Part shown: positions 2,613 through 60,762 of the stretch, piece after piece
Layout: each line of letters begins with the position of its first letter
Numbering within the stretch: position 1 is the stretch's first letter
Source: an archaeon
GTDB taxonomy: Archaea > Nanobdellota > Nanobdellia > Woesearchaeales > GW2011-AR15
Assembly (NCBI GenBank): GCA_043826135.1
Contig: JBDRQT010000053.1
Coordinates: 4,266 to 68,265, forward strand
Length of the DNA stretch: 64,000 bases
Direction of reading: 5' to 3'
Made by a program: the position numbers and the translations under genes
The notes under the pieces: model-generated
What the model saw: only the letters and a program-made list of their open reading frames with translations
Databases searched by the model: none
Told to the model about the DNA's origin: nothing

Positions 2613-3755
2613 CTATTTCGCTACTGGTATTGCTGATTTTAGATAGTTGAATTCAGGGAGCCCATATTTTTTTACCATTTCTTCTGCATACATCACCACA
2701 CCGGAGAACCTTTCCCTGAAAACACTTAGTATGGGTTCGGGTGTATCCACTCTGATTACAGCAGGCAGATAAGCCAAATCATCGAGTACTGCCCTGACTA
2801 TCCCCGCAGCAGGATAATTACCATCAGGCGCAAATATACCGGAAATCTGTTTCATAGTATCTCTTGTCGCTGCCAGATCATCAAGAATCAGCACAATGCC
2901 ACCTATAATACTGAGTAAATATTTTTTAGACATCATATGATATTTAGGGTCATCGACATTCCATATTCTGGAAGTTGGAAATTTTTCGCTCAGGTAAGAT
3001 AGCCATTTGAATCTTGGCTTTTTGCTGTATTCCGAGGTTGTCTCTCTTTCAACTACATCCTTCAGCATTTTTTGGCCTCTTCCTCTTGTGCTCTCGCCGG
3101 TAACGCTAAGCCTCGACCTGTCCTGTATAGATGACCATCTGGAAGCCCTCTCTCCAATATATAGGATATTAGTGATACCGCAATCCTTTAGTAGCGTGTA
3201 AAGCAAATCTATCACCATATTTGCAGCTGTCTCATTTTTGGTATTTGGAATATTCCCCCCATTAACGGATTCCATCCAGGTGAAATTGACTTTATGGTGA
3301 CCAGGATCATGCGTGATCAAACTAGGCAGATCATATGCTGCGCTGGTCTCTTCTTCCTGCAACTGGCTGATTCCCACCTGAGTCTCTATCATCATATCAA
3401 GATTGGATCCTCTTTCAATTTGATATATCTTATCAGCTTTTCCCTGCGGCGACAAGGCAGTCTTGAATGTGAAACCAAACCCTAAACTTTTTTCGTCCCC
3501 TACATCAATTAAGTACCCATTATCTATCTCGAAAAGGCCGCGCTTGCGCAACTTAAGGAACAATCTTCCGTCTTTTTCAATCATATAGTTAGAACCACCA
3601 TTGAATTCGCTGACTTCAGTATACTGCGCATTCAATGTGACATGCCACTTCTGGCCGCTTCGTACATCAATAAAATCTCTTTCACCGTATCTTCTCAGCA
3701 TTTCATCCAATGTTTGAGATTCTGCAAGCTCTGTTAGTGTCGGATTAAGCGTCAT
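2613..3755 (-). CDS. Hypothetical protein with a weak PRTase-like motif
   Basis: 380-aa ORF. Segment IVLILDDLAATRDTM loosely resembles the type-I phosphoribosyltransferase PRPP-binding motif (hydrophobic x4, DD, TxxT). Otherwise unrecognised. Confidence 0.4.
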   Translation of the reverse strand: MTLNPTLTELAESQTLDEMLRRYGERDFIDVRSGQKWHVTLNAQYTEVSEFNGGSNYMIEKDGRLFLKLRKRGLFEIDNGYLIDVGDEKSLGFGFTFKTALSPQGKADKIYQIERGSNLDMMIETQVGISQLQEEETSAAYDLPSLITHDPGHHKVNFTWMESVNGGNIPNTKNETAANMVIDLLYTLLKDCGITNILYIGERASRWSSIQDRSRLSVTGESTRGRGQKMLKDVVERETTSEYSKKPRFKWLSYLSEKFPTSRIWNVDDPKYHMMSKKYLLSIIGGIVLILDDLAATRDTMKQISGIFAPDGNYPAAGIVRAVLDDLAYLPAVIRVDTPEPILSVFRERFSGVVMYAEEMVKKYGLPEFNYLKSAIPVAK

Positions 3756-3870: not shown

Positions 3871-4593
3871 TTGTTATTCTGTGAGGTTATTCAAATGGCA
3901 GGTGAGATAAATTTTTGTCATCGTTCTTTAACAGATGTTGTTGCTGATTGTTATGATGTCGCTCTTCAGATAGCAAAAAGGGCTGATGAGACGGGTTCCA
4001 AAGAAATTAACTTGTTTTATTTAAGGAATGGTGGGACCTTCCCTGGAGAGACAGTATTCTTGATCCTTACGGAAATTCTAGGATATAATGTCAAAACATA
4101 TACACCTCAATACGAAAAATATGGAGAAGGCAGAGTTGGCAAGAAGGCTATGTTAAACAAAGCAACTGCACTCACTATCGAGCAAAAGAAAGAAGTGGTT
4201 AATGGCATCAATAAGGGAAATTTGACTGTCATCCTTGATGAACTAATTGATCAAGGAACAACAATGCACCAAGCATTTGAAGATATCTCTGTGTATGATA
4301 AAGAAGTCGGATTGACCTACGACCAGAATATGCTTTCCACAATGCTATTTGGCGCAGTCCTCAATAGAAAGACTCCTTATAGGTTTGGTGTGAGAAGGGA
4401 TCATCCACTGAAAAAAAGGATATTGCAGATGCACTCATCGTTTGATGCACCTCCAAGTTGGCTTACCTTTCCATGGGAGACAGAATCATCGCACTATGAT
4501 TCAAACTTAGATAAAATGATTTATCATTCTGGAGGCAATCTGGAACCACTTAGAGAGTATATAAGACCATTGATAAGTCACTTCAAACGCTAA
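3871..4593 (+). CDS. Phosphoribosyltransferase-like protein
   Basis: 240-aa ORF. LTVILDELIDQGTTM matches the PRTase type-I PRPP-binding motif. The true start may be the downstream Met (MAGEINF, nt 3895). Confidence 0.45.
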   Translation: MLFCEVIQMAGEINFCHRSLTDVVADCYDVALQIAKRADETGSKEINLFYLRNGGTFPGETVFLILTEILGYNVKTYTPQYEKYGEGRVGKKAMLNKATALTIEQKKEVVNGINKGNLTVILDELIDQGTTMHQAFEDISVYDKEVGLTYDQNMLSTMLFGAVLNRKTPYRFGVRRDHPLKKRILQMHSSFDAPPSWLTFPWETESSHYDSNLDKMIYHSGGNLEPLREYIRPLISHFKR

Positions 4594-5886: not shown

Positions 5887-8745
5887 TCACCCCAGTAATT
5901 TTTGAGGCGGGATCTTGCGATCCACAAGAAGCGCTGCATATTTACCTACTCCATCACTTGATATATTGTAGTGCTTCATAATTCTAGCTCCTGCCTGTTC
6001 CAATACCTGCCTTGTCTGATCTCTGCCCAAATAATTTGATAGATGACATACTATTTCGGTTTTGTCAAACCCAAGCGTGGGTATCGTATCTTTTTTCCCC
6101 CTATAAAGCCAGTGAGACCGTTCAATCTCACTCCTTTTATTATTGTGCAGTTGCAGACCAATATACTCGCTGTGCGTTGTTTCAATTTCTGGCTCAGGGT
6201 ACAGAACAAATCTGTTGCCTTTTTTTCTCAATTTATGTTTTCCATCAACCCTAACTGGAAATCCGCTCTGCCATAATTGCAAAACCTGGTCTTTAACATC
6301 AGGTTCTGAATCAAACTTAATACTAAAATCAGCAGGCGGCATGTTTTGAAATTTTAGATACGCAGATGAAGGTTTATCATACCTGTCATATCTATCTTCA
6401 TCTATATGTGCGCGTACATAAAGGTTGGATGATGGATTTGGCCAGATATCTGGATTTGCGTCTAACTGGCTTGCCCTTTGGATTATATCAACAACTCGCA
6501 TCCGGGCCAGATATTCAGAATTCCGCTGATCTGCTTGATTCATAAGCGCAAGTTCATCCATAAGAAGGACTGTGCAGATCTGTATATCCAAATCTGAATT
6601 TGTAATGGTTAACAACTGGTAATATCCATCTTCTTCAAAATGTGTTCTTCCAACCCTTTGTCCTGATTTATTTTTTTTATCTGCCAATAGTGATTTTCCT
6701 ACATTTGGCTCTCCAAGCAATCTGAAGCTATCAATCAACCTCACCAAATCATGACGCTCTAGGTAGGGCTCTTTTCCCTGAGCACTTTCCACCCACTCAA
6801 GAGCTGGTGCAAATGCATCGTCCATCTGCGCTGCCCTCATTATGTTCATCGCAGCAGTATATGTCTCAGCATCTACTGCATCAGGATTAGCAAAAAATTG
6901 TTCCATGGATGCAATGATGCTTCCCATAGATCTTCTTCCTTTTGCTTTTTCAAGCATTCTTCTTGCTAGCGGCGAATTTTCAAAGATATTTGCAATTTGC
7001 TTGGCTCTGTAAGATAATAGCTCCTCCAGTGCCAGTGCGAAGAACGGGTGATCTCCAGTCTCCTTCAATATATATTGCCGAATTTCAGTCTCATTAAATC
7101 CATAGGACAATAGAGGTCCAACCACTTCCCTGTCCAGATTGTTCTTGAGTCTATCAAAAAATTCTAAATCAGTTTCATTTGATAATTTGTTTGATTCCCT
7201 TAGCTTATCTTCCAAAAATTCTCTTGCTTCTCCTGCCTTTAAGTTACCTTGATTTCCAAAAAGATGCACCTGAGAGTCAAGAAAATCATGCATTAATTTT
7301 AGTTCATAATGGCTCATAATATTTTGGTATGAGTCAAGTCCAAGAGGAATAATAGTTTCAACTGCAACATTGACAAAGGCTTCTGGATTGAACATGTCTG
7401 TGCATAGGGTTGCACTCAGACCTGCTTCATGCTGGCTGAAATCCTCAAATCCTTTGACATATCCTATAACTTCTGTCCCTTCATCTGTATGTGTCTTTAC
7501 TTTCCGATACATTAATTCTTCTTCCATATCCACTTCTGCAAAACCTGAACCGGAATTGATTGAACCAATTAATTGTTCTTCTGTCATACCGAGCATATTA
7601 GCAGTGCCTGATAACATTTTTCTTCCAAGATTAGTATATTGCATCACTCCTTCCAATATGGTTTCAAGAGGTTGTTTCACTATTGGCTTTAACTGCTTTG
7701 GATCGCATCCGGCAAGTCTGAGCAGAGCTGTTCCATTTACACCATAACTTTCTTGGAATGTCTCAACAATGCCTTGTCCTGATACTCCATTCTGAAGAAG
7801 TGCTACATATTGGCTTCTGAGCTGCATCTGATGATTTGTATACGCTGACCAGAACCTTGGATCTGCAGCATGCTTAATAATAATGGGAGCAATGATATCC
7901 TCCACCTGCCTAGATGTCATGAATGGCATCTTGAAGGTATTATCATCCCATAGGCCAGTTGGCCTAACAATATGCATTTGATCCAAATAATCAAACCTAT
8001 CTTGATGTTGGTATCTATTACTTCTGCTCTCTTCTGCTGCTCGATTGCTTTCAGTTGGAAATAATAGATAAATCATACCTTTTCCATGGGATAAAGGTTC
8101 AATATATATCTTAATTGCATCACCTTCAGAGGATATGTCTTTGATTACTCCCAATCTGTCTTTTGGAGGTATGATTGATCCTAACTCCTGCAATTCTTCT
8201 AGGCTAGTATTCCCATATGGGAATTCTTCGCAAAATACCAGGTCACCTAATTGAGGTTCTTGTTGAAATGGAATAAATGGATTGGCTTCCCTAAATCCTC
8301 TTTTAGCAAGCTGCAGATATCTTTTCAAGGATTCTGCACTGTCAACTAAGATTGGTTTATCAAACATTCTTCGAGATAGTTGTGCTTCAGAAAAGATATC
8401 ATGCCCTACAGAGAATTGAATATAGATGTGACCTGGATATGATTGTTGATGATAGATATTACCCACACCGGGTCCTCCATCGATGAATGCATATTCTAAA
8501 TCTTCATATCCAAATCTCTCAGAGGGCATAGGATAAGGAATCGCTTCAATAAATTTTAATATCGAATCTAAATCCTTAACTATATTTAAGGCTACATTGT
8601 AATAAATATGACCATCTCCTTGAGCCACTAGCGCCTCGTGCGCTGAAGATAGTTGGTTGGAAGTTCTATCTGTTTGCCCTCCTGCAGCAACCAGCAAATT
8701 TTTTCCTCTGCTACTGATTCTACCCATACCCGTCCTCTCCAGCAC
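5887..8745 (-). CDS. Large hypothetical protein (952 aa), last gene of the six-gene Ubl-like operon
   Basis: 952-aa ORF overlapping the upstream 286-aa ORF by 26 nt. No recognisable catalytic motif by eye. Co-oriented and translationally coupled with the E1-like and JAB genes. Confidence 0.5.
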   Translation of the reverse strand: MLERTGMGRISSRGKNLLVAAGGQTDRTSNQLSSAHEALVAQGDGHIYYNVALNIVKDLDSILKFIEAIPYPMPSERFGYEDLEYAFIDGGPGVGNIYHQQSYPGHIYIQFSVGHDIFSEAQLSRRMFDKPILVDSAESLKRYLQLAKRGFREANPFIPFQQEPQLGDLVFCEEFPYGNTSLEELQELGSIIPPKDRLGVIKDISSEGDAIKIYIEPLSHGKGMIYLLFPTESNRAAEESRSNRYQHQDRFDYLDQMHIVRPTGLWDDNTFKMPFMTSRQVEDIIAPIIIKHAADPRFWSAYTNHQMQLRSQYVALLQNGVSGQGIVETFQESYGVNGTALLRLAGCDPKQLKPIVKQPLETILEGVMQYTNLGRKMLSGTANMLGMTEEQLIGSINSGSGFAEVDMEEELMYRKVKTHTDEGTEVIGYVKGFEDFSQHEAGLSATLCTDMFNPEAFVNVAVETIIPLGLDSYQNIMSHYELKLMHDFLDSQVHLFGNQGNLKAGEAREFLEDKLRESNKLSNETDLEFFDRLKNNLDREVVGPLLSYGFNETEIRQYILKETGDHPFFALALEELLSYRAKQIANIFENSPLARRMLEKAKGRRSMGSIIASMEQFFANPDAVDAETYTAAMNIMRAAQMDDAFAPALEWVESAQGKEPYLERHDLVRLIDSFRLLGEPNVGKSLLADKKNKSGQRVGRTHFEEDGYYQLLTITNSDLDIQICTVLLMDELALMNQADQRNSEYLARMRVVDIIQRASQLDANPDIWPNPSSNLYVRAHIDEDRYDRYDKPSSAYLKFQNMPPADFSIKFDSEPDVKDQVLQLWQSGFPVRVDGKHKLRKKGNRFVLYPEPEIETTHSEYIGLQLHNNKRSEIERSHWLYRGKKDTIPTLGFDKTEIVCHLSNYLGRDQTRQVLEQAGARIMKHYNISSDGVGKYAALLVDRKIPPQKLLG

Positions 8746-9580
8746 TTCTCATTATTTGTCCTATACTAAGAACATTATCAAGCGCAGCGTGCATAAGCAT
8801 CCCCATCCATTTAAGTCTATGAGGAATGTTGAGGTACGGAAGGCTCTGTGCATCCTTCTTTAGGATTGGGGACCTTATCTCCTGCGCAGCCCTATATGTA
8901 GCAAGCAAATACGCCAGTTCCTCTGCATCTGCAAGCGTGTGTAATACATCTGTATCATTAAGTATATTATACTTGGCGACCAGAACCTCTGCCACGTCCC
9001 TTGCACCTTCAACTATCTGCACTTCTGGAATCCTTAATAAAAACTGATATCTCTGGGCCAGGACATCGTCCAATGAATCATCATAACTATGTGGACCATA
9101 CGCAAGCGTTATGAAATTGTGAGAATCGAATGGTCCAGCCTCTTCAAGTAGACTTGCCGAGTTCAGATTATAAGGACTTTTTTTTGCAGCTTCGATCAAA
9201 TAATAGTGAAATTCCTTTTCGCCATAAATATGAATGTCTTCGCCTAATCCATGCATCGCCCCTTCAAGAACACTCAAATCAATGCTTTCATGAAAGCGAG
9301 CTTTTCTTGTAATCTTATCTCGCTCATGATAATTATCATCATCTAATCTGAACAACGCTCTAAGCAGTGTAATCTGTGCAAGATATTTTTCACCGGATTT
9401 GCTCATCGACCGATAATACATCTTTAAGGCTTTTTGAACAGTTTTATCCTCAACATAACTATGATTGCATAGTATCTTTGCAACATGGTCAATTGGTTCC
9501 AGATTGAATCTTAATGCCGGTAAATTCTCCTGCGGCACAGTATCCATTGCTTCTAATGCTTTTCTAAGATCATCAAACAT
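8720..9580 (-). CDS. Hypothetical protein (286 aa), operon member
   Basis: ORF overlaps the E1-like gene by 8 nt and the 952-aa gene by 26 nt. No motif recognised. Confidence 0.45.
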   Translation of the reverse strand: MFDDLRKALEAMDTVPQENLPALRFNLEPIDHVAKILCNHSYVEDKTVQKALKMYYRSMSKSGEKYLAQITLLRALFRLDDDNYHERDKITRKARFHESIDLSVLEGAMHGLGEDIHIYGEKEFHYYLIEAAKKSPYNLNSASLLEEAGPFDSHNFITLAYGPHSYDDSLDDVLAQRYQFLLRIPEVQIVEGARDVAEVLVAKYNILNDTDVLHTLADAEELAYLLATYRAAQEIRSPILKKDAQSLPYLNIPHRLKWMGMLMHAALDNVLSIGQIMRSAGEDGYG

Positions 9581-11066
9581 TTTTGCCTACCTCAAATACA
9601 TTTCCAACACTATGATACCAATCATCAAATGGTTTGCCGCATACAGAAATCTGTTCTACCCCTTGTTCAAAATCCCTTGTTACAGTATCGGGCAGCGGTG
9701 GCTGAAATCTTGGGATGTCTACCCCCAGATCCCTGATCCCAGATATCGGAAAGTACTGCAATCTCGGATAACCGAGCATATCATAATAAAATGGCCCTCT
9801 TAATGGCTCGCAGGCAAAATAGTTGATAGCTTCTCCTGCAAGCACAGCTCCTGCAAGCGCAGTAGTCAAAACCTGTGATCCTTCCACCTCAGGATCTGTG
9901 CAATGCCTATGCTCCTGCCTGATTGCACTAAGATAGGCAAGCTCAAGAAAATCATTCTGGAACAGCATCGAGGATGTCATTCCAGGGACATATGCATTTA
10001 CATTTAATGTGAATGGTGTACAGCCGGCAAGAAGCATCGATAATTGCTTCCTTTGTGAGAGATTGATTATTCTCATCTGGTTGTCAAAGCCATCTGCTGC
10101 ACAAATCAGCAGATCAACATCAGGAAGCCTCGAACTTTCAGATATCCTTCTCTTGCTACCAATATACAAAGTCCCATTATTTCTTGCATTGTAATAATCT
10201 GCCATTGCTAAGCTTTTCAGTCTGCCAAGATAATTGGCAAATTGCGGTGCTCTGGATGTATTTGTGAATTCTGCAGTGTCATCATCAAACATATATATCT
10301 TCTCAAACCCTAATCCATCAGTGGCCTCAAGAAAACTTACACCAACAGCTCCAACTCCAACTAGTCCGATTGTTTTATTACGAGGATCAAAATCACGCCA
10401 ATCAAAATCATTGACATAAGAAGTTCTTTTTCTGGACCATAGATTCCAGGTTATAATGTCTTTTTGCGGATTACCCAGTTCTAGTAGATTAGAAATTATC
10501 TCTCCAAGACCAATAGTAGCCTGAGCAATGCTCATAATTCTGCTTGATCTCTGTCCCTCAAATTGTGGCATCAGGTGCTCATTAAGAATTTTTCCGCCAT
10601 GATATGACGCGATTCTGATTTCATGCTCATTTCCGGCACTCAGGGATACATTAGGCTTGCTTTCTGAATGCATGTAGACCCATTGAGACAGCATCATTCT
10701 CTTTTCCTTGCTTGAATTTCCTGCATGGAAAAATACTGGCGAAGCATGCATAACTATCTCCTTTAGTGCATCCGACTTCACCCCAGGATAGAATCCTTTG
10801 ATAGAAACATCCGGGTTTAGTGAATGCAAAATTTGCTCTATCTGTGACGGAGTTTGGCCAGAATCTATTGCTCTTCCCATAAATGCATCATTACCCTGCG
10901 TGACCTCATCGCCAGCATGCACTATCCTGCCAATCTCCAAACAGGCTGCAAATAAGGATGCATATCTAAGTGGCAATCCTTGACCTAAATTCACAAGCAG
11001 GGCTGCATCAAGGATTCCCTGTTCCCATCCTGGGATATATGTCTGTTTGAATGTTCGTCTTTGCAT
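9573..11066 (-). CDS. ThiF/MoeB/E1-like adenylyltransferase domain protein with an unrecognised ~220-aa N-terminal domain
   Basis: 497-aa ORF. Central Rossmann nucleotide-binding signature IGLVGVGAVGVSFLEATDGLGFEKIYMFDDDTAEFTNTSRAPQF (GxGxxG, acidic DDD, N-x-x-R-Q-like segment) as in E1/ThiF/MoeB. Downstream Cys-containing crossover-like loop LLAGCTPFT. Confidence 0.65.
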   Translation of the reverse strand: MQRRTFKQTYIPGWEQGILDAALLVNLGQGLPLRYASLFAACLEIGRIVHAGDEVTQGNDAFMGRAIDSGQTPSQIEQILHSLNPDVSIKGFYPGVKSDALKEIVMHASPVFFHAGNSSKEKRMMLSQWVYMHSESKPNVSLSAGNEHEIRIASYHGGKILNEHLMPQFEGQRSSRIMSIAQATIGLGEIISNLLELGNPQKDIITWNLWSRKRTSYVNDFDWRDFDPRNKTIGLVGVGAVGVSFLEATDGLGFEKIYMFDDDTAEFTNTSRAPQFANYLGRLKSLAMADYYNARNNGTLYIGSKRRISESSRLPDVDLLICAADGFDNQMRIINLSQRKQLSMLLAGCTPFTLNVNAYVPGMTSSMLFQNDFLELAYLSAIRQEHRHCTDPEVEGSQVLTTALAGAVLAGEAINYFACEPLRGPFYYDMLGYPRLQYFPISGIRDLGVDIPRFQPPLPDTVTRDFEQGVEQISVCGKPFDDWYHSVGNVFEVGKNV

Positions 11067-11068
11067 TT

Positions 11069-12217
11069 CTATTTACCGTTCTTTAGTTTCAATACTTGAC
11101 TGTATGATGGAGATAAACTTGCAAGAGCTGTTTGTACTGCAGATAGCTGCGCATCATAGTTACCACCTGGTTGGATTTGTGTGGCTAATAAATCATAAAC
11201 AAATCTAATTGATCTTGCATCCGCACTATCTTCTGCAAATCTTAAATAATCACCAATCAAGTTCAACAGCTCGGTTGCTGTCAACGGCATGTTTTGGTTA
11301 AGGTCTGGCAGCAGATTCGGGGTATTAAATCCTGAACTTGGCTGCGGATAATATACTGCCAGCGCATTGACCAAAGTTTGCACACTTGGTCTTGCCGGCA
11401 GGGCATATTCAATCGGTTTTACATATATCTCTATTTCCTTCTGCATTTTCTGATAGTCTATCTTAGCTCTACAGGGAATATCCTCCACATGAAGAACGAG
11501 TCCATCTTCAGGAGTTAGGAGATGGTATGTATTCCTTCCATTGAAGGATTCCTTTTGACATACACCCACGCCTATCCATGGAGACGCGCCTTCATTAAAT
11601 ATTAGGAAAAGACTATATCCTACTTCGACTTTAAAGACAATCTCACGCTTTGATCCAACTATTGCAGCATCCTTTTTTCTGAGCGCGGCCTGCAAATGTT
11701 CCTCGGACCCTGCCATGGCAAATTCATCAGTAACATCTCTCCACCCATAATGAGTTTGATAATTCATGTTCCATCTAGTGATTTTCTCGAAATCAGTCAA
11801 ATCTCCGTCTAATCCTGAACTAGGAACTAAGAAACCCTGCGGATGATAATGAAAGATGCCTCCCAAATTCAATTGCTGCTTTCTTGTGCTATTTGTACTT
11901 TTGATTTTTTGGTAGACTTCATCTGTCGCTGGTTGTGTCCGAATAACCCTACCGGGTGATACTTGCTGGCCAAACATAACTGCATCCTGAACCACATTTG
12001 TTTCCCTTCCGAACAAAGGCATCATCGCAAGCTCGCATCCAGTAATATCTGGATGATCTTGCATAATTGCTCTCCATGTCTGGATCTTTTCATACACCAA
12101 TGTAGGTAAATACCAATCAAGATGTATTTCAGGAAGAAATTCTTTTTTTGGAGTTGGATTAAAATGAGCGCTTATGGCGTCTGCCAAATCCTTTTCATCT
12201 ACCTTCTGTGCTCCCAT
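11069..12217 (-). CDS. JAB/MPN (JAMM) metallopeptidase domain protein
   Basis: 382-aa ORF containing GGIFHYHPQGFLVPSSGLDGD. This matches the JAMM motif HxH-x(7-8)-S-x2-D with an upstream Glu-containing segment. Confidence 0.6.
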   Translation of the reverse strand: MGAQKVDEKDLADAISAHFNPTPKKEFLPEIHLDWYLPTLVYEKIQTWRAIMQDHPDITGCELAMMPLFGRETNVVQDAVMFGQQVSPGRVIRTQPATDEVYQKIKSTNSTRKQQLNLGGIFHYHPQGFLVPSSGLDGDLTDFEKITRWNMNYQTHYGWRDVTDEFAMAGSEEHLQAALRKKDAAIVGSKREIVFKVEVGYSLFLIFNEGASPWIGVGVCQKESFNGRNTYHLLTPEDGLVLHVEDIPCRAKIDYQKMQKEIEIYVKPIEYALPARPSVQTLVNALAVYYPQPSSGFNTPNLLPDLNQNMPLTATELLNLIGDYLRFAEDSADARSIRFVYDLLATQIQPGGNYDAQLSAVQTALASLSPSYSQVLKLKNGK

Positions 12218-12218
12218 T

Positions 12219-13550
12219 CTATGCAGCCTCCATTATCGGATACATGTTGGTCGGCAGCAGATTCTTTTCCATCACTTCTGCATAAGTTATCCATGACATC
12301 TGCGACATTGGTCTTTTATAAGATTCCCCGTTGCTATGTTGTCTTATTGAAGCATTCGTGAGTCCATTCTGCAGAGTATTCACCCCATACATAATTGTCC
12401 TGATAACGCTTTGCTGCCAGGATTCACCTGGCAATCTATCATATTTTCCAGGTCCGCAAAATGTCCTGTAATCCCCTTTTTTTGACGTGAAATTAAAGTA
12501 CTCAAAATCACCATTAACGTGCACTTCACTAACCTTCATCCCCTCACTTTCTTGATGAATTAATACTCCAATTTCAGGCGGATTGTAGAAAGGATACCAT
12601 TTATGTGTATGTCCTGCTCTGATATCATGCATAGCAAAAGGCAGTGGCTTCAGATAAACGAATAATCCTTCGCCTCCAACATACCTGACACCGGAACCCA
12701 TATAATCTATTTCAGGCTCTTGCTTTAAAGCCATCATGCCGCTTGCTCTGCAATAACCCGCGAATTCATCAATCCTTTTTTTATCCATTTGCCTGACAAA
12801 CTGCCCAAATATTTCTTGAGTCCTGCTTGCTGATACCAATCTCATCTCCCTATCCAAGTCAATTTGGTTTTCAAGTTTCAGCAGTCTGCTGCCTCCATTA
12901 AATGATATGCTGATGTCTCCTATATGAGTTCTATCTGAAAGTCTATAAGTGTTTTCATGTCCGCATAGCAGAAAGTGTTGCTCAAAATCAAATTTAACTG
13001 TATCTTTATCCAAACCAAACGATTTTCTCACAGCTCTCATAATTTGCTGATTTGTGATTTCATTTGACTTCTCGATTGGAGTTTCAGATACAAGTGAGAA
13101 GATCTCCTTTCTTCTGATTTCGAGCAATTCGGATCTCGAGTAATCATTTATCCTTGGGTCTGATTGATCAAGTGCAGGAATGATATCCGTCAGACATAAG
13201 AAATAGGGGATTCCGTTTCCACCTAATGATCCCTTGGATAAAAAAGTTTCATATACACTGCTTAGAGATTCCTCCAAAAATTGTTTTATATCTTGTGATC
13301 TGACAGTCTCTTCAAGACCTAACACATCACGCATGGTGCCTTGATAAGCAAGGCCATATGTTCCCCTTCTTATCGGAGAGTCTGTTGTCATAACCTCTAG
13401 AACAGCATCATTTGAATTTTGATTGAGATAATAAATATGATTATCTAGAACAATTCCACTATGCTCCAACGCATTTTCCAATAAATAAAAATTAAACACT
13501 GGAGGCATTGTGCTATGCAAGACCACCTGCTGGGGGCTGTACTCTAACAC
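12219..13550 (-). CDS. Hypothetical protein; N-terminal region is a possible E2/UBC-like fold (speculative)
   Basis: 443-aa ORF. Segment GSLGGNGIPYFLCLTDIIP loosely resembles the UBC active-site stretch (G-x-[IV]-C-L-D-I-L) with a candidate catalytic Cys. Cannot be confirmed by eye. Confidence 0.4.
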   Translation of the reverse strand: MLEYSPQQVVLHSTMPPVFNFYLLENALEHSGIVLDNHIYYLNQNSNDAVLEVMTTDSPIRRGTYGLAYQGTMRDVLGLEETVRSQDIKQFLEESLSSVYETFLSKGSLGGNGIPYFLCLTDIIPALDQSDPRINDYSRSELLEIRRKEIFSLVSETPIEKSNEITNQQIMRAVRKSFGLDKDTVKFDFEQHFLLCGHENTYRLSDRTHIGDISISFNGGSRLLKLENQIDLDREMRLVSASRTQEIFGQFVRQMDKKRIDEFAGYCRASGMMALKQEPEIDYMGSGVRYVGGEGLFVYLKPLPFAMHDIRAGHTHKWYPFYNPPEIGVLIHQESEGMKVSEVHVNGDFEYFNFTSKKGDYRTFCGPGKYDRLPGESWQQSVIRTIMYGVNTLQNGLTNASIRQHSNGESYKRPMSQMSWITYAEVMEKNLLPTNMYPIMEAA

Positions 13551-14451
13551 TTGTCACTTTCACAGGTGTTGAAATTCCGGAGATTGTGAGCATTCTATCC
13601 TCAAACAAAGTTTTAAATGCTTGACTATCGCGTAGTACACCTGTACTATAGATAGCTTTTTCTCCATTCTCTCCAGCTGCTGAAAGAAAGTCTCTAACTA
13701 CAGAAAGTGAAAGTCTCTCAGGAAAATGAGTTTCATCTCTTAAGTACGCGTAAAAATCTGCTTCCGATGCTGGGACTTCCTCTTCACTAAAAACAACTCT
13801 AGTTGTTCGTCCACTAATTTCCACTGTCACAACATATGGAAGAGATTGAGCCGGTTGAGGGAGTACAACTTTATAATCAGCTTTCCTTTCCTCTTCTGCA
13901 ATGGTTTCTATTCTCTTTTCAATTTGTCCCATATAATCCCGGACACAAGCATCAATTGATTCAAAACCGGCATAAGCATGCACATATCTTCGTTGCTCTG
14001 ATGTTTGTTCATGAGCTTTTTCAAGGTGCTCATGCATACTCAGGGCATCTGCAATTTTGTCTGCATTAAGTCTGTAATTTTTTGATAGTTCTCTCAAAGC
14101 ATGTTCTAACATGCTTGGCTCAATTGTATCTACTTTAGGAAGAGCACTAGCTGCCTTTTCAGTTCTAATAACAAATATCTCAATCTGCTCTGCAGACGCT
14201 GCAAGCTGCTCAAGATAACTAGTTTCAGGTTGCATTACTGCAGAATCGTAAACTCCAGCATACGTACCAAAATCTGATTTTCCCCTTCCTTCCCTGTAAT
14301 CACTTACTCGTACTTGAATACCCTCTACAATTAGGGCATCCGGCACTCCACTAATAAATATTACCTTGCCGCTCTCAAGGTGTGCAGCTGCATCTCCTTG
14401 GCCTCCCCTATTGCCAGCTAGTGTTGCAATTATATTATCTGAACCTGTCAT
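13513..14451 (-). CDS. Hypothetical protein ending in ...VKVTSVRVQPPAGGLA (candidate ubiquitin-like C-terminal module with Gly-Gly)
   Basis: 312-aa first ORF of the operon. The C-terminus carries a GG dipeptide followed by two residues, as in Ubl precursors trimmed by JAB/DUB peptidases. Overlaps the next gene by 38 nt. GGGGGAG SD-like element about 9 nt upstream of the start. Confidence 0.45.
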   Translation of the reverse strand: MTGSDNIIATLAGNRGGQGDAAAHLESGKVIFISGVPDALIVEGIQVRVSDYREGRGKSDFGTYAGVYDSAVMQPETSYLEQLAASAEQIEIFVIRTEKAASALPKVDTIEPSMLEHALRELSKNYRLNADKIADALSMHEHLEKAHEQTSEQRRYVHAYAGFESIDACVRDYMGQIEKRIETIAEEERKADYKVVLPQPAQSLPYVVTVEISGRTTRVVFSEEEVPASEADFYAYLRDETHFPERLSLSVVRDFLSAAGENGEKAIYSTGVLRDSQAFKTLFEDRMLTISGISTPVKVTSVRVQPPAGGLA

Positions 14452-14525
14452 ATTGAATCTCCCCCTCAGTTTTAGAGATAGAGACAGTATTTAATATTTA
14501 AATGTTATGGAAAAGTAGTAACAAA

Positions 14526-39295: not shown

Positions 39296-39423
39296 TGCGG
39301 GTGTAGCTTAGCCTGGTTATAGCGCTGGACTCATATATGCTTATGAGTGATGAGCCGTTTGGCGATGATATTCATAAGGCGCTAAGAAATCCAGAAGTCA
39401 CGATTTCAAATATCGTCACCCGC
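39296..39423 (+). tRNA. tRNA-Met (anticodon CAT; could alternatively be tRNA-Ile2) with a ~53-nt intron at the canonical 37/38 position
   Basis: Hand-folded. Acceptor GCGGGTG/CACCCGC plus discriminator A. D-arm GCT.AGCCTGGTTAT.AGC. Anticodon stem CTGGA/TCCAG with loop CT-CAT-A(A), interrupted after position 37 by 39335-39387. T-arm ACGAT-TTCAAAT-ATCGT. No encoded CCA. Confidence 0.7.
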
Positions 39424-39516
39424 ACTTATTTATTGGTTGGTGCAAATTGTTTGCTAATCCTAGGATAGAATGGCGAAATAGTATTAATATGACGAGAAGA
39501 GATTCAAGATTGCAGT

Positions 39517-56355: not shown

Positions 56356-59300
56356 TCATCCCAATCTGACTTTGATTTCCACTTTTTTTCTTGGCTCCTT
56401 GTCAAGAGACAATTTGCTTGTGCCGCCGACACTTACAAGCTTGGTTGCAAGAGGTTCGTATAGGTATCCATAAATCTCTATACCCTTTCTTTTAGGCAGG
56501 CAGTATGGGTTTGATACAAAGTCACCTGTGGTGATGCCGCTAACATCAACATCTCTCAAATAGTCAACTATAAGCAGTGGACTGAACAACATTTCAGGAT
56601 CAATGATATTTAACTCAATGTCAGCCGCAGTTAGCCCAGGTTTATTTATGACATATTTGAGGTTGAGGCAGCTGCCGTCGTCTTCAGGATCTGGAGCAAT
56701 CTTGATTGCGGGGATATTGACATTAAATGTTATTTCCTTTGTCATAGCAATCCTTCCTTTAACATCAATGGTCATGGCATCGCTTGTCTTTTTGGCATTC
56801 TTTACATAGACTGCAGTTTCTAATTCCTGTTTTTCTCCAGACTGCAAGCTGCCAACTTGGAAACTGTTCCTATCTGCTTTCATCCCGCTAGGAAGCTGGA
56901 CATCTATCGTCATTGCTTCGCTCGTGCTGGTCATCTTATTCTCAACTGTAATACTCAGGTCGAACACACCGAAAATATCTACAGCCTGCATTGAAGTCAT
57001 ATCTATCGTGACCCTTTGACTTGCAGAACAATCTGTTTCAACCGTACCATCGCAGTTTTCGTCGACATCATTTCCGCAGATCTCCTGCATCGCTGGACTT
57101 ATGTTATCGTTGTTGTCATTGCAGTCTGTTCCGTAGTGGCAAGAATCTGATTTTAGATAGTAACCATCATCATCGCTGTCGACACAGTCCCATAAACTCT
57201 CACCGCCGTCAGAAGCTGCACAAAGTTGCACTCCGAAATCACAAATTGCTCCGTCAACGCATGAATCCTGTTTCCCAGCACAGTCAACGCATGCGCATCC
57301 TTCCCATGCCTGACAGACACCATTTGGTGGTCCGATGCAACCAGCTTTTACCATATGATCTTCACAAGTGTCATCACAAGTAGCATCTAGGCAAAGAGTT
57401 GTGCCTGGTTGACATGAAGGTGCATTCCTTGGCATTAAACATACCCTGCTCACCCAATCACATATAAGACCTGTCTTACAGCTATCTTTGTTAGCATAGC
57501 AGTCGTCACAAAGGCAACCCTCTCCAAATTCACATATTCCATTTGGTATTCCGCTACATTCTGTCTTTCCTCCACGTGTTGCACATGTTGCATCACATGT
57601 CTTGTCATTGCACATTGTTGTTCCGCTAGTGCAGCCGCAAATCTGGGCACTGTCGCATGCAGCTCCGTTTGTGCAGCTTCCTTGCTTATCAGTGCAGTCT
57701 ATGCAAGCGCAACCTTCTCCGACTTTGCATACGCCATCTGCAGGACCTACACATCCCATATTAGCTGTATCTGTCTTGCTGCAGTCCTGACTGCAGGTTC
57801 CGTCCCTGCAAAGAGTTGTTCCCGGCATGCATGGGCTAAATATCTCCTCGCATTTCTTTGCTGTTGTATTCCATGAACACAAAAAGTTGGTCTTGGACCC
57901 ATAGCATGTATCAAAATGACAGCTTGCTTCGTTATTGTATTTTGAACAATCCATATTCGCTGGACAGTCCACACAAGTGTCACCGGCATTTGTGAATATC
58001 ATCGACATGATATCATATGTGCTTGCAGTGTCCACCAAATAATCTGAACAATCAAATAGACATTCTTCGTAGTCACAGTTTATTTTCATTCCCCACAGGC
58101 TCTCTCCACAAGCAGTACTAGCTGCACATGACAGTGCACATTTAGGGCTTGACCACTGGAAAGGATTCTTGAGCGGTGTTATTTTTCTTTCTGTCAGATA
58201 GATATTGTTCATTGATTTTGATCCTGAATATTCAAGGTCATATGTCAGCATGGCGCTTGATGAGTATATCATGCAATCTACATCATTGTTTGTCCTGCTT
58301 TCAAATGTGAGCTGGGTACCAGTTGATGTCATCACATCAGTAGGCTCAAATCCTATTGTCTTTGCCTTTTGAATACCTCCTGTGACTTTGCCTTTTGCAA
58401 TATGCTCAGTGCCATCCTGTGAATATGCACATACGTAATAATTGCAGTTTGCTTCCCAGATATAGATTCCATTGTAATCGAAATAGGGTTCATCCACAAG
58501 TCCGTCACAGTCATTATCTTTTCCGTCTATTGTGAACTCAGTAGTCTCGGTCTGCACGCATGCGTTGCCGCAGAGTTCTGTCAGATAATTGCATTCAAGA
58601 CCTGATACGCAGCTATCCTGTTTGTTGCTGCAATCCTTGCATGCGCAGCCTTCTCCAAGTTCGCATATCATATTTTCTGTAATGCATCCCTGGTTTGCAG
58701 TATCAGTTACTGCGCAGTTCGCGCTGCATGTATTATCTACACATAATGCTGTTCCTGCTGGGCAGCCGCAAAGTCCATCCACTGAGCATACTGCGCCCTG
58801 TGTACAGCCCCTGTTCTGGCCTGTGCAATCTGAGCAGCCGCATCCCTCATCTGCTCCGCAAACTCCATTTGGCGCACCAACACACCCGAGTCCTGTGCAT
58901 TCTGGACTGCAGGTTCCATCTGCACATTTGCCTGTTCCAGGTGCACAATTTGTAACTTCGCATGAGCAAGTAAGTTTATTGCACTCTCCGCCAGGACAAT
59001 CTGAATCCTGGTTGCATCCACCGCAATCAAGTTTATTGCAGGTTGCATCATAGCTGCAGCCGCATATCACATCTGTGCATTCATCTTTCCTGACATACTG
59101 GACATGGCTTCCTGCATCACTAGAACAATATGTCTCCTGGCAGTTGAACTGAGGATTTTCGCTTACAATGTCGCATGCCTCATCCGAACCAAGTTCTCCG
59201 TCACCGCATCTCGAACAATCTTCTCCCAAATACTCAGCACAAAAGTCCAGGTCTGCCTGATCAAGAACAGGATCCTGGTTTGCATTATACTGATCAGGGT

Positions 59301-60762
59301 TCACACATGAGCCTTCTGTTGCTTTTTCAGCTAGGATACAGCTCTGGATTGCTGCATAGTCATACTCATCCACAGCGCCATTAGTGTTAATATCACATCT
59401 TTCGCAGCCTGATTTGCAAGTTGTCTGCGCAACAACATTCCATTCAAAATTTGTACATGTGGCTGTTAGTCCACCTTGCTTCAAACAATAATTATAACCT
59501 GCAGGTCTGCAAATCAGATTTTCATCTGCGCAGGCATATGAATCAGAGCAGCATGCGCTGTTTTCCATCTGAGTCCCATCGACATTTGTCATGTATGTTA
59601 TGCCAAATCTGGTTTTTGTTTCAAGCGGGATTTCACCAATATCATCTCCGCAGCACAGGCCAATATCATCATCAGGAAACCCATCCTGTCCCAATGTGCA
59701 CTCGTTATTATGATCGATATCGCAATCAAACCACTTCGAAAGTCTCAAATCAACATTATTTATCTTATCACAGGTAGCTGCATTAATATCTGCATCCGCC
59801 CATCCACCTTGCTTTCCGTCAAAAGACATGCACACTTCATATTCATTATCTGCACCATCGGCATAGACACCTGAATTCGTCTTGTTATATTGCCCATTAC
59901 GTTTGACACAGTCTGTTGGGTTTGGCGAGCACTGGGTTATACTGTCATCTGACAGGCAGCTGCTGTCCATGTCCCATTCTGCATAATAAGGAAGGCCTGG
60001 ATTTAAAACATAATCACTCTGCTGTCCATAATAATCATAAATATTACCGTCAACGCTTGACTCAGGATAGACAGGGCAGTAGAAAAAATTTAGATAAGTC
60101 AGGTCCATGTCTCTCTCTACATGGCAATTATATGTATCTTGGTCCAGTGTCTCTTTTATGGTATTTCTGTTCCCATCAATAGTAATCGTGACTCCTGGTT
60201 CCGGGCTGACATCAACTGTATCAGGAATTGTGAATGCATGCCTGAAGGTATAATCTTCCTGAGTATGGCTTGCATCTGTCCATGTGTCGCTCTGACCTGT
60301 TGAATACGCTACTCTTATAGTAATATCTCCGCAATAATGGCTATTTCCTTGGATTGTAAATGACCTGTTGTTCTCAGCAATACAGGGTTTGCTGACTGCA
60401 ACCCCATCTAAAGACGCGGGATTATACATACAAACATGACTCGTACACTCCGGACTAGCCTTGAATTTGCTTCCGCATTTATTAGTGCATGCATTTCCGC
60501 AGCCATTGCTGCCACATTCCCATGAACCTGGGCAGCTGTTATCACATCCACCCTCTTCACCACCACCACCACCACACTGTGGGCCAAAACAGCTAATGCC
60601 ACCATGGTCATTATAATAAGTTCCATAAGAGTGAACCTCGTGGTTTACTACATCTGCCGTTGTACCAGGATAAATTGTTCCTACCACTGAAACATTAAAA
60701 AATCCCATTGATAACAATAATACTAATACTAAACATACTAAAGAAACTACTTGATTTTTCAT
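56356..60762 (-). CDS. Giant secreted cysteine-rich multi-repeat surface protein (1468 aa)
   Basis: Signal peptide MKNQVVSLVCLVLVLLLSMGFF. At least 5 tandem ~60-aa Cys-rich modules of form C-x-D-x-TC-x3-C-x2-TDTAN-x-GC-x5-G-x-C-x3-EGCAC-x-DC-x2-KQDSC-x-G-x2-CD. Two MopE-like DNDCDG putative metal-binding motifs (GKDNDCDGLVDE; DCNDNNDNISPAMQEICGNDVDENCDGTVE). Cys-free beta-rich C-terminal region. Confidence 0.6.
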   Translation of the reverse strand: MKNQVVSLVCLVLVLLLSMGFFNVSVVGTIYPGTTADVVNHEVHSYGTYYNDHGGISCFGPQCGGGGGEEGGCDNSCPGSWECGSNGCGNACTNKCGSKFKASPECTSHVCMYNPASLDGVAVSKPCIAENNRSFTIQGNSHYCGDITIRVAYSTGQSDTWTDASHTQEDYTFRHAFTIPDTVDVSPEPGVTITIDGNRNTIKETLDQDTYNCHVERDMDLTYLNFFYCPVYPESSVDGNIYDYYGQQSDYVLNPGLPYYAEWDMDSSCLSDDSITQCSPNPTDCVKRNGQYNKTNSGVYADGADNEYEVCMSFDGKQGGWADADINAATCDKINNVDLRLSKWFDCDIDHNNECTLGQDGFPDDDIGLCCGDDIGEIPLETKTRFGITYMTNVDGTQMENSACCSDSYACADENLICRPAGYNYCLKQGGLTATCTNFEWNVVAQTTCKSGCERCDINTNGAVDEYDYAAIQSCILAEKATEGSCVNPDQYNANQDPVLDQADLDFCAEYLGEDCSRCGDGELGSDEACDIVSENPQFNCQETYCSSDAGSHVQYVRKDECTDVICGCSYDATCNKLDCGGCNQDSDCPGGECNKLTCSCEVTNCAPGTGKCADGTCSPECTGLGCVGAPNGVCGADEGCGCSDCTGQNRGCTQGAVCSVDGLCGCPAGTALCVDNTCSANCAVTDTANQGCITENMICELGEGCACKDCSNKQDSCVSGLECNYLTELCGNACVQTETTEFTIDGKDNDCDGLVDEPYFDYNGIYIWEANCNYYVCAYSQDGTEHIAKGKVTGGIQKAKTIGFEPTDVMTSTGTQLTFESRTNNDVDCMIYSSSAMLTYDLEYSGSKSMNNIYLTERKITPLKNPFQWSSPKCALSCAASTACGESLWGMKINCDYEECLFDCSDYLVDTASTYDIMSMIFTNAGDTCVDCPANMDCSKYNNEASCHFDTCYGSKTNFLCSWNTTAKKCEEIFSPCMPGTTLCRDGTCSQDCSKTDTANMGCVGPADGVCKVGEGCACIDCTDKQGSCTNGAACDSAQICGCTSGTTMCNDKTCDATCATRGGKTECSGIPNGICEFGEGCLCDDCYANKDSCKTGLICDWVSRVCLMPRNAPSCQPGTTLCLDATCDDTCEDHMVKAGCIGPPNGVCQAWEGCACVDCAGKQDSCVDGAICDFGVQLCAASDGGESLWDCVDSDDDGYYLKSDSCHYGTDCNDNNDNISPAMQEICGNDVDENCDGTVETDCSASQRVTIDMTSMQAVDIFGVFDLSITVENKMTSTSEAMTIDVQLPSGMKADRNSFQVGSLQSGEKQELETAVYVKNAKKTSDAMTIDVKGRIAMTKEITFNVNIPAIKIAPDPEDDGSCLNLKYVINKPGLTAADIELNIIDPEMLFSPLLIVDYLRDVDVSGITTGDFVSNPYCLPKRKGIEIYGYLYEPLATKLVSVGGTSKLSLDKEPRKKVEIKVRLG

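Follow-up and report, generated by a model that had tools for sequence, protein, structure and literature searches.

A conserved six-gene cassette and its distribution

The window analyzed here is a stretch of 64,000 nucleotides from an archaeon of the Woesearchaeales (contig JBDRQT010000053.1, positions 4,266 to 68,265), and the archaeal host proposed from the sequence alone was borne out. It contains six open reading frames (ORFs) on the minus strand between positions 5887 and 14451, encoding 312, 443, 382, 497, 286 and 952 amino acids, which the original prediction had taken for a candidate ubiquitin-like conjugation operon; their coordinates and lengths were recovered as claimed, and all of the peptide strings quoted in its support were found in the translations. 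We number the ORFs genes 1 to 6 in their order of transcription. Their joint recurrence, always in one order, on other contigs marks them as one conserved operon and not a chance run of ORFs. Two of the components, an E1-like activating enzyme and a JAMM metallopeptidase, are firmly identified, a third, a glycine-tailed protein, is well supported by its tail, and a fourth, an E2-like carrier, is suggestive. The genes, together with two signals read upstream of the first of them, are as follows.

13513-14451, minus strand: gene 1, 312 amino acids, glycine-tailed candidate modifier or conjugated substrate (ORF without family match)
12219-13508, minus strand: gene 2, candidate carrier or E2-like protein, 429 amino acids from the ATG at 13508 (ORF, start placed from homologues)
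11069-12217, minus strand: gene 3, 382 amino acids, JAMM/MPN+ metallopeptidase with a C-terminal extension (family alignment and PDB profile)
9573-11066, minus strand: gene 4, 497 amino acids, E1-like activating enzyme (Pfam ThiF and PDB profile matches)
8720-9580, minus strand: gene 5, 286 amino acids, conserved partner, always directly upstream of gene 6
5887-8745, minus strand: gene 6, 952 amino acids, large multidomain partner, maybe starting at M7 (8727), with no recognizable catalytic domain
14488-14502, minus strand: TATA-like element TTTAAATATTAAATA upstream of gene 1, read from the sequence and of presumed function
14459-14467, minus strand: Shine-Dalgarno-like sequence GAGGGGGAG, 7 nt before the ATG of gene 1, read from the sequence

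The genes are tightly packed, with gaps of 1 nt between genes 2 and 3 and of 2 nt between genes 3 and 4, and an overlap of 8 nt between genes 4 and 5. The two longer overlaps, of 38 nt between genes 1 and 2 and of 26 nt between genes 5 and 6, hinge on upstream GTG starts. Gene 2 has been called from a GTG at 13550 (443 amino acids), and at 433 amino acids by another caller and 420 by NCBI; alignments with its homologues favor the ATG at 13508 (429 amino acids), with which the 38-nt overlap becomes a 4-nt gap. Similarly, gene 6 starts at M7 (8727) in another gene call.

Every contig of sufficient length carries the full set in identical order; it was found in at least five further contigs (L006, L007, L009, L010 and L011), giving six full loci when the window copy is counted, and partial copies in L002, L004, L014 and L015 are consistent with the order of the full cassette. 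Among the full loci, L007 is a copy from Candidatus Nanoarchaeia, L009 is an archaeal metagenome contig in which the cassette is flanked by Trm1, aEF-1beta and RTC, and more distant copies are present in L010, from Nanoarchaeota, and in L011, which is labelled "archaeon". The cassette of L006 (2303-12072) lies in a metagenome-assembled genome (MAG) labelled as a candidate division KSB1 bacterium (GCA_042576465.1), which would reflect either a transfer from archaea to bacteria or a mis-binned contig. In BLASTP comparisons of the window with L006, genes 1 to 6 gave E-values of 6e-8, 1e-76, 7e-46, 2e-157 (the E1), 2e-23 and 8e-105, respectively.

Large-scale searches indicated that the cassette is extremely rare. 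A word-indexed search of 5.8 billion proteins yielded two relatives for gene 3, a single one for gene 2 and none for gene 1, and an exhaustive HMMER search with gene 6 against 1.84 billion representatives returned 11 proteins, 8 of them below 1e-30. Scans for the JAMM family recovered one metagenome contig that was already known, and none in GTDB representatives or IMG/VR, and the sole match of an E1 scan of GTDB representatives was the Nanoarchaeia MAG. In addition, Pfam, PADLOC, NCBIfam and PHROGs gave no family match for five of the six proteins, whether from the window or, weak Prok-JAB matches apart, from its homologues; the Pfam scan of cassette members took in 29 proteins. No archaeal cassette of this kind is described in the literature searched, which comprised a searchable library only.

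The cassette had been placed between a histone gene on one side and S27e, aIF2alpha and Nop10 on the other, as was confirmed, and had been regarded as an accessory insertion. This proposal is partly supported. The cassette is rare and its neighbors are housekeeping genes that differ in each genome carrying it, but no repeats bracket the cassette in the window and its GC content (0.39-0.42) is about that of the flanks. A recent integrative insertion was considered and rejected on these two grounds and for want of an integrase.

The activating enzyme and the peptidase

The assignment of gene 4 to the E1 family was upheld by a match to Pfam ThiF (PF00899) at 1.8e-15 over residues 229-417, with 57 bits against a cut-off of 28.1. 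A profile built from six gene 4 orthologues matched 64 solved E1-family structures, in which UBA3/NAE (1.2e-16) was followed by SAE2 (1e-13), MccB (3.3e-13), and ThiF and MoeB (2-3e-12); lower in the ranking were UBA5 and UBA1/6/7, and then Cap2 (1.4e-7) and BubCD (5e-6). The lead of UBA3 over ThiF and MoeB, of about 14 bits, is modest. Two adenylation-type domains can be delimited in the protein.

10401-11066, minus strand: N-terminal inactive adenylation-like domain of the E1, residues 1-222 (hhalign; nucleotide-binding invariants missing)
9747-10382, minus strand: active adenylation domain of the E1, residues 229-440 (invariant nucleotide-site residues)

The N-terminal 222 residues are conserved and lack the ligands of the nucleotide site, and an hhalign comparison of residues 1-222 with residues 223-497 gave a probability of 84% and an E-value of 7.6e-6 over 182 columns. 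Since the N-terminal half is thus a degenerate copy of the adenylation domain, gene 4 is predicted to be a pseudo-dimer within one chain, in which an inactive adenylation domain is paired with an active one (IAD-AAD). This layout is a hallmark of BilD and of eukaryotic E1s, whereas ThiF, MoeB and Cap2 are homodimeric (Chambers et al.). R4 and Q8 are invariant at the extreme N-terminus, in an RxxxRQ motif that resembles the RxxRQ arginine-finger segment of ThiF and MoeB and may provide a candidate arginine finger. In the active domain, the glycines of the GxGxxG motif (G237, G239 and G242), R272, K284 and D318 are invariant in six homologues; N269 is another invariant residue. A cysteine of the crossover loop, Cys389 (HCTDPEV; codon 9900-9902), is invariant as well; it lies about 27 residues past the PG strand and is directly followed by an S..TTA...GE helix. 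There is no separate CYS domain of about 80 amino acids, and Cys389 stands at the crossover position of the ThiF/MoeB type.

Two further observations concern this enzyme. The E1 orthologues of L010 (6055-7548) and L011 (7774-9237) carry a CxC near the C-terminus (GPCGCGP and GACDCLP, respectively) that is missing in the others and may be either a vestige or a metal site in variant form. A reading as a PRTRC cassette was also considered and was rejected, its ThiF model scoring 13.5 bits against a cut-off of 144.75.

The place of MccB among the top PDB matches of the adenylation domain (3.3e-13) raises another kind of chemistry, in which the E1-like enzyme would adenylate gene 1 at its C-terminus, or else a fragment freed by the peptidase, and the outcome would be no protein conjugate but a modified peptide, for example a peptidyl-nucleotide or a cyclized product. 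A peptidase and an E1-like enzyme do adjoin a protein with a conserved C-terminal tail, as such a pathway would have it. MccB-type substrates end in Asn rather than Gly, however; a degenerate adenylation domain stands where MccB has its N-terminal peptide clamp; the would-be precursor is a protein of 170-541 amino acids with a folded conserved domain; and no transporter, immunity or tailoring genes were found at the examined loci. We therefore regard peptide modification of this kind as very improbable.

Gene 3 had been called a JAMM peptidase from its motif, and the alignment of its homologues sustains this call.

11801-11851, minus strand: JAMM motif HYHPQGFLVPSSGLDGD, with the upstream catalytic Glu codon at 12032-12034

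Eight homologues share the residues of the active site without exception (Glu62, His123, His125, Ser133 and Asp139), as they do its HxHP, and the spacing in the homologues is exactly HxHx7Sx2D. When a profile of the N-terminal 185 or so residues of gene 3 was compared with the PDB, JAMM proteases made up 15 of the 16 top matches and were aligned on the motif; BRCC36, AfJAMM, Rpn11 and CSN5 are among them, with individual E-values of only 0.03-0.9. The window protein matched no Pfam model. Prok-JAB, the sole Pfam family matched by more than one of the 29 cassette proteins, was weakly matched by two of the eight gene 3 members (best 7.5e-4), the window protein not being one of these, and one homologue has been named RPN8/RPN11 by JGI.

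The glycine-tailed protein, the candidate carrier and the large partners

Gene 1 homologues occupy the same operon position in six other loci and range from 170 to 541 amino acids, the N-terminal part varying from near-absent (170 amino acids, L010) to more than 400 residues. Only the C-terminal 100 or so residues are conserved, and neither the window protein nor its homologues matched a Pfam family.

13522-13878, minus strand: conserved C-terminal domain of gene 1, residues 192-310, ending in GG at 13522-13527 (alignments)

In the window protein, the diglycine is followed by LA and the stop codon (13513-13521). A glycine tail had been postulated from this one sequence, and the family supports it: GG stands at the aligned column in five of seven homologues, and four of the seven proteins end in Gly, for which the chance probability is about 7e-4 at a residue frequency of 7%. 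The tails past the GG comprise 2-11 residues and are not conserved (LA, SNA, SNGGLTDLLYR, GVG, TRRPG). A diglycine with a variable tail is the pattern expected of a C-terminus that would be trimmed and then adenylated. The gene 1 proteins of L007, L009, L010 and L011 end exactly in Gly (PTG, GVG, RPG and PPG, respectively), and two of them also keep the upstream GG; these may have two alternative mature ends or may need no trimming.

A GG with two extra residues, a JAMM peptidase and a ThiF-family enzyme make up the CysO/Mec+ and QbsE/QbsD arrangement, and the same three elements are present here. Gene 1 could accordingly be a sulfur carrier like CysO, QbsE or MoaD, its GG exposed by the JAMM peptidase and thiocarboxylated after adenylation of the MoeB/ThiF type, in the service of cofactor synthesis, cysteine synthesis or tRNA thiolation. 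The solid PDB matches of gene 4 to ThiF and MoeB (2-3e-12) agree with such a role, and archaeal SAMP/UbaA/JAMM1 also shares a GG-containing C-terminus that carries extra residues, along with the adenylating enzyme of the ThiF family and the JAMM peptidase. Nevertheless, no rhodanese, cysteine desulfurase, cysteine synthase, MoaE, ThiG or other sulfur-transfer or biosynthetic partner was found in or beside the six loci, and gene 4 remained far below the ThiF, MoeB and UbaA equivalogs, at 11-29 bits against cut-offs of 150-510 (among NCBIfam models, 29 against 275 for ThiF, 11 against 266 for MoeB and 14.6 against 450 for UbaA). Moreover, the inactive-domain duplication of the E1 is typical of conjugating E1s, the three additional large conserved proteins, one of them with an invariant cysteine, would be left unexplained, and so rare a cassette is not a core metabolic trait. 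On balance, a sulfur-carrier function appears improbable.

For gene 2, the conserved part is the C-terminal 190 or so residues.

12222-12707, minus strand: conserved C-terminal domain of gene 2, with E2-like motif order (alignment of eight homologues)

The original prediction had sought a UBC-like catalytic cysteine in GNGIPYFLCLTDII, and this residue did not survive comparison, being kept in three of the seven homologues that cover it (the window, L006 and L009) and replaced by V, L, L and I in the others. Another cysteine, that of FCG (Cys365 in the 443-residue numbering; codon 12456-12458), is the only invariant one in gene 2 among eight homologues. The motifs of the domain follow the order WYPFxNPPExGV ... 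VNGDF ... FCG ... W ... IMxGVxTLxNG, which matches that of the UBC hallmarks, namely a YPxxPP strand, an HPN-like turn, the catalytic cysteine, a tryptophan and helix 2. In the sole hhalign match to E2s, which was not significant, the invariant Cys and Trp of gene 2 fall on Cys85 and Trp93 of UBE2D2. The arrangement suggests an E2 fold, and a role of gene 2 as an E2-like carrier is more probable than not, though unproven.

Genes 5 and 6 always stand together. Gene 5 had no Pfam, PDB or PADLOC match and has no invariant Cys or His. Gene 6 likewise matched no family, PDB entry or defence model and lacks invariant Cys and His residues; its AlphaFold2 (AF2) model, computed from 11 sequences, is usable, with a mean predicted local distance difference test (pLDDT) of 79 and a predicted template modelling score (pTM) of 0.67. 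The model contains SH3/Tudor-like barrels and helical bundles and no catalytic fold, and the fold matches also include bromodomain-like bundles and START/helix-grip-like domains; Foldseek returned none at E<=1e-3 against PDB and the viral BFVD. From the predicted structure, gene 6 looks like a binding scaffold rather than an enzyme. Genes 5 and 6 would most likely form a substrate-selecting scaffold, that is, an E3-like adaptor, or be the target itself.

A possible conjugation pathway and its relation to known systems

Considering these components together, we propose, with a probability of roughly 0.6, that the operon encodes an E1-driven system of the ubiquitin type that conjugates a protein via its C-terminus. 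Gene 1 would be made either as a precursor or in ready form, with a flexible C-terminal tail that ends in or contains Gly-Gly. The JAMM peptidase of gene 3 would trim the residues past the GG (LA in this genome) and would probably also reverse conjugates. The E1 of gene 4 would adenylate the exposed glycine and capture it on the crossover-loop Cys389, after which the tag would be handed to the single invariant cysteine of gene 2, acting as an E2-like carrier. The final attachment would be to a target that genes 5 and 6 either select or contain.

Several observations weigh against this proposal. An hhalign comparison of gene 2 with four verified UQ_con E2s gave only 0.2-0.4% (best E 0.15, not significant); none of the eight gene 2 members matched Pfam UQ_con or Prok-E2; no PDB sequence-profile match was obtained for gene 2; and its AF2 model, from an alignment with one homologue, is unusable at a pLDDT of 33.6. 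For gene 1, two of the seven homologues have AG or GS at the aligned GG column, and hhalign of the conserved domain with ubiquitin, NEDD8, ThiS and MoaD was negative at 0.2%, in what is a low-power test. The JAMM site of the window copy departs from the canonical spacing by three residues inserted after the Ser. None of the examined copies has an integrase, a transposase or a known defence gene next to it. Finally, several gene 1 homologues have a long basic or Pro-rich, unconserved linker before the GG, which is more like the tail of a CD-NTase than like ubiquitin.

This last feature keeps alive a reading in which the tail alone matters, as in CBASS. Gene 1 would then be no ubiquitin-fold modifier but an effector or sensor, and the E1 and the cysteine protein would join its disordered Gly tail to a partner or target in order to switch it on, with the JAMM peptidase as antagonist, as Cap2 and Cap3 act on CD-NTases. 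Besides the linker, the large variable N-terminal regions of gene 1 (170-541 amino acids in all) would suit such a role, as would the failure of hhalign, in the low-power test given above, to find a beta-grasp signal in gene 1; and the PADLOC matches of the E1 are to "E1-E2" models of the Cap2 type only (best 6.5e-8). Against it, no nucleotidyltransferase or other enzymatic domain was detected in gene 1 or its neighbors, the shortest homologue (170 amino acids) has little beyond the conserved C-terminal domain and tail, the E1 and the cysteine protein are separate, unfused genes, and the E1 is an IAD-AAD pseudo-dimer in contrast to the homodimeric Cap2. Priming of an effector in this manner is, in our view, rather unlikely.

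That the cassette conforms to no Bil, Bub or CBASS template, as had been concluded from the gene content alone, was borne out by the Pfam, PADLOC and NCBIfam scans. With the proposed conjugation pathway in mind, comparison with these and other systems nevertheless reveals partial likenesses. The cassette would work most like Bil (BilABCD, Type I and Type II), a bacterial ISG15-like ubiquitination system, and shares with it the lack of a RING or HECT E3. In addition, BilB has an extended loop ahead of its catalytic cysteine (Chambers et al.), and gene 2 similarly has an extended segment before the putative carrier cysteine. The differences from Bil are several: genes 1-3 have no sequence match to Pfam or PADLOC families, the E1 lacks the CYS insertion of about 80 amino acids, gene 1 has large variable N-terminal regions, gene 2 (about 430 amino acids) has an extra N-terminal half, six genes are conserved here (the extras being those of 286 and 952 amino acids) versus the four of Ubl-E2-JAB-E1, where Ubl denotes the ubiquitin-like protein, and most of the hosts belong to the DPANN-type archaea.

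Type II CBASS resembles the cassette, as proposed here, in the E1 chemistry on a partner's glycine-containing tail, in the opposing JAMM peptidase and in an E1 cysteine placed in a short crossover loop, and its Cap2 models are the only PADLOC defence models that cassette proteins matched. It differs in that no CD-NTase or effector domain occurs in the cassette or its flanks and in that Cap2 is an E2-E1 fusion and a homodimer, whereas the cassette E1 is unfused and a predicted pseudo-dimer; the Cap2 matches, of a strength of 6.5e-8 at most, cover the E1 part only.

The Bub (6E/DUF6527) systems are likewise sparse operons with a Ubl, an E2, an E1 and sometimes a JAB protease, and their Ubls carry diverse N-terminal domains. 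The E1 and E2 of Bub have no catalytic cysteines and use oxyesters, whereas the E1 and gene 2 of the cassette each carry an invariant cysteine. The hallmark DUF6527 serine protease of Bub (PF20137) had no match among the 29 cassette members scanned, the cassette E1 shares only 26% identity over 107 amino acids with the Bub E1, and hhalign was negative both for the gene 2 domain against the Bub E2 domain and for the gene 1 domain against the Ubl BubA (0.1%, again a low-power test). The nearest plasmid relative of the E1 belongs to a Type II Bub operon (L013, 5040-7061) on a plasmid of Sinorhizobium numidicum (NZ_CP120372.1), which encodes a multiubiquitin protein, a ThiF-family E2-E1 and DUF6527; upstream of it lie a helix-turn-helix regulator and an ImmA/IrrE peptidase, and an IS110 transposase is close by.

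Among archaea, the ubiquitin operons of Caldiarchaeum and Asgard (ubiquitin, E1, E2, RING E3 and Rpn11) share with the cassette an archaeal host, a JAMM protein and an adenylation domain, the last scoring best here, among solved structures, against the eukaryotic UBA3 and SAE2. They differ in gene content and order, and no Pfam ubiquitin, UQ_con or RING match was found in cassette members.

A broader reading, which we put forward tentatively and at somewhat less than even odds, is that the cassette is an undescribed complete ubiquitination-like pathway, which would have its center in DPANN-type archaea and stand apart from Bil, Bub and CBASS. Its parts would be a compact, eukaryote-style pseudo-dimeric E1 lacking a separate Cys domain; carriers and Gly-Gly modifiers that each form a new family, the carriers being E2-like and the modifiers joined to N-terminal modules that vary; a JAMM peptidase for both maturation and deconjugation; and a scaffold of about 950 amino acids with SH3/Tudor barrels, which together with its partner of about 290 amino acids would be a new kind of E3-like adaptor or a dedicated target. 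A role in defence against viruses or other mobile elements derives its plausibility solely from the analogy with Bil and CBASS.

Elsewhere in the window, a 128-nt match to the Rfam tRNA family at 39297-39424 on the plus strand (53 bits), not called by ARAGORN, is probably an intron-containing archaeal tRNA. Three ORFs beside Nop10 have no family match (1758-2603 and 2613-3755 on the minus strand, and 3871-4593 on the plus strand); the one of 240 amino acids has faint phosphoribosyltransferase-like and DpdD-like matches only. The largest ORF of the window encodes 1468 amino acids (56356-60762, minus strand).

Outside eukaryotes, only a few lineages are known to have complete ubiquitin-type conjugation, represented by Bil, Bub, type II CBASS and a small number of operons in archaea. 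The present cassette seems to be a hitherto undescribed relative of protein tagging of the ubiquitin type, with five of its six proteins outside described families, and, if the proposal holds, it would add another lineage, mainly in DPANN-type archaea with tiny genomes. Its E1, which combines the inactive-plus-active layout regarded as a hallmark of eukaryotic E1s with a short cysteine loop like that of ThiF, represents a possible intermediate architecture, and the two large conserved partners may offer a route to substrate choice without RING or HECT E3s. As the system is small (8.6 kb, six genes) and could be reconstituted in E. coli, each of the proposed steps is directly testable.

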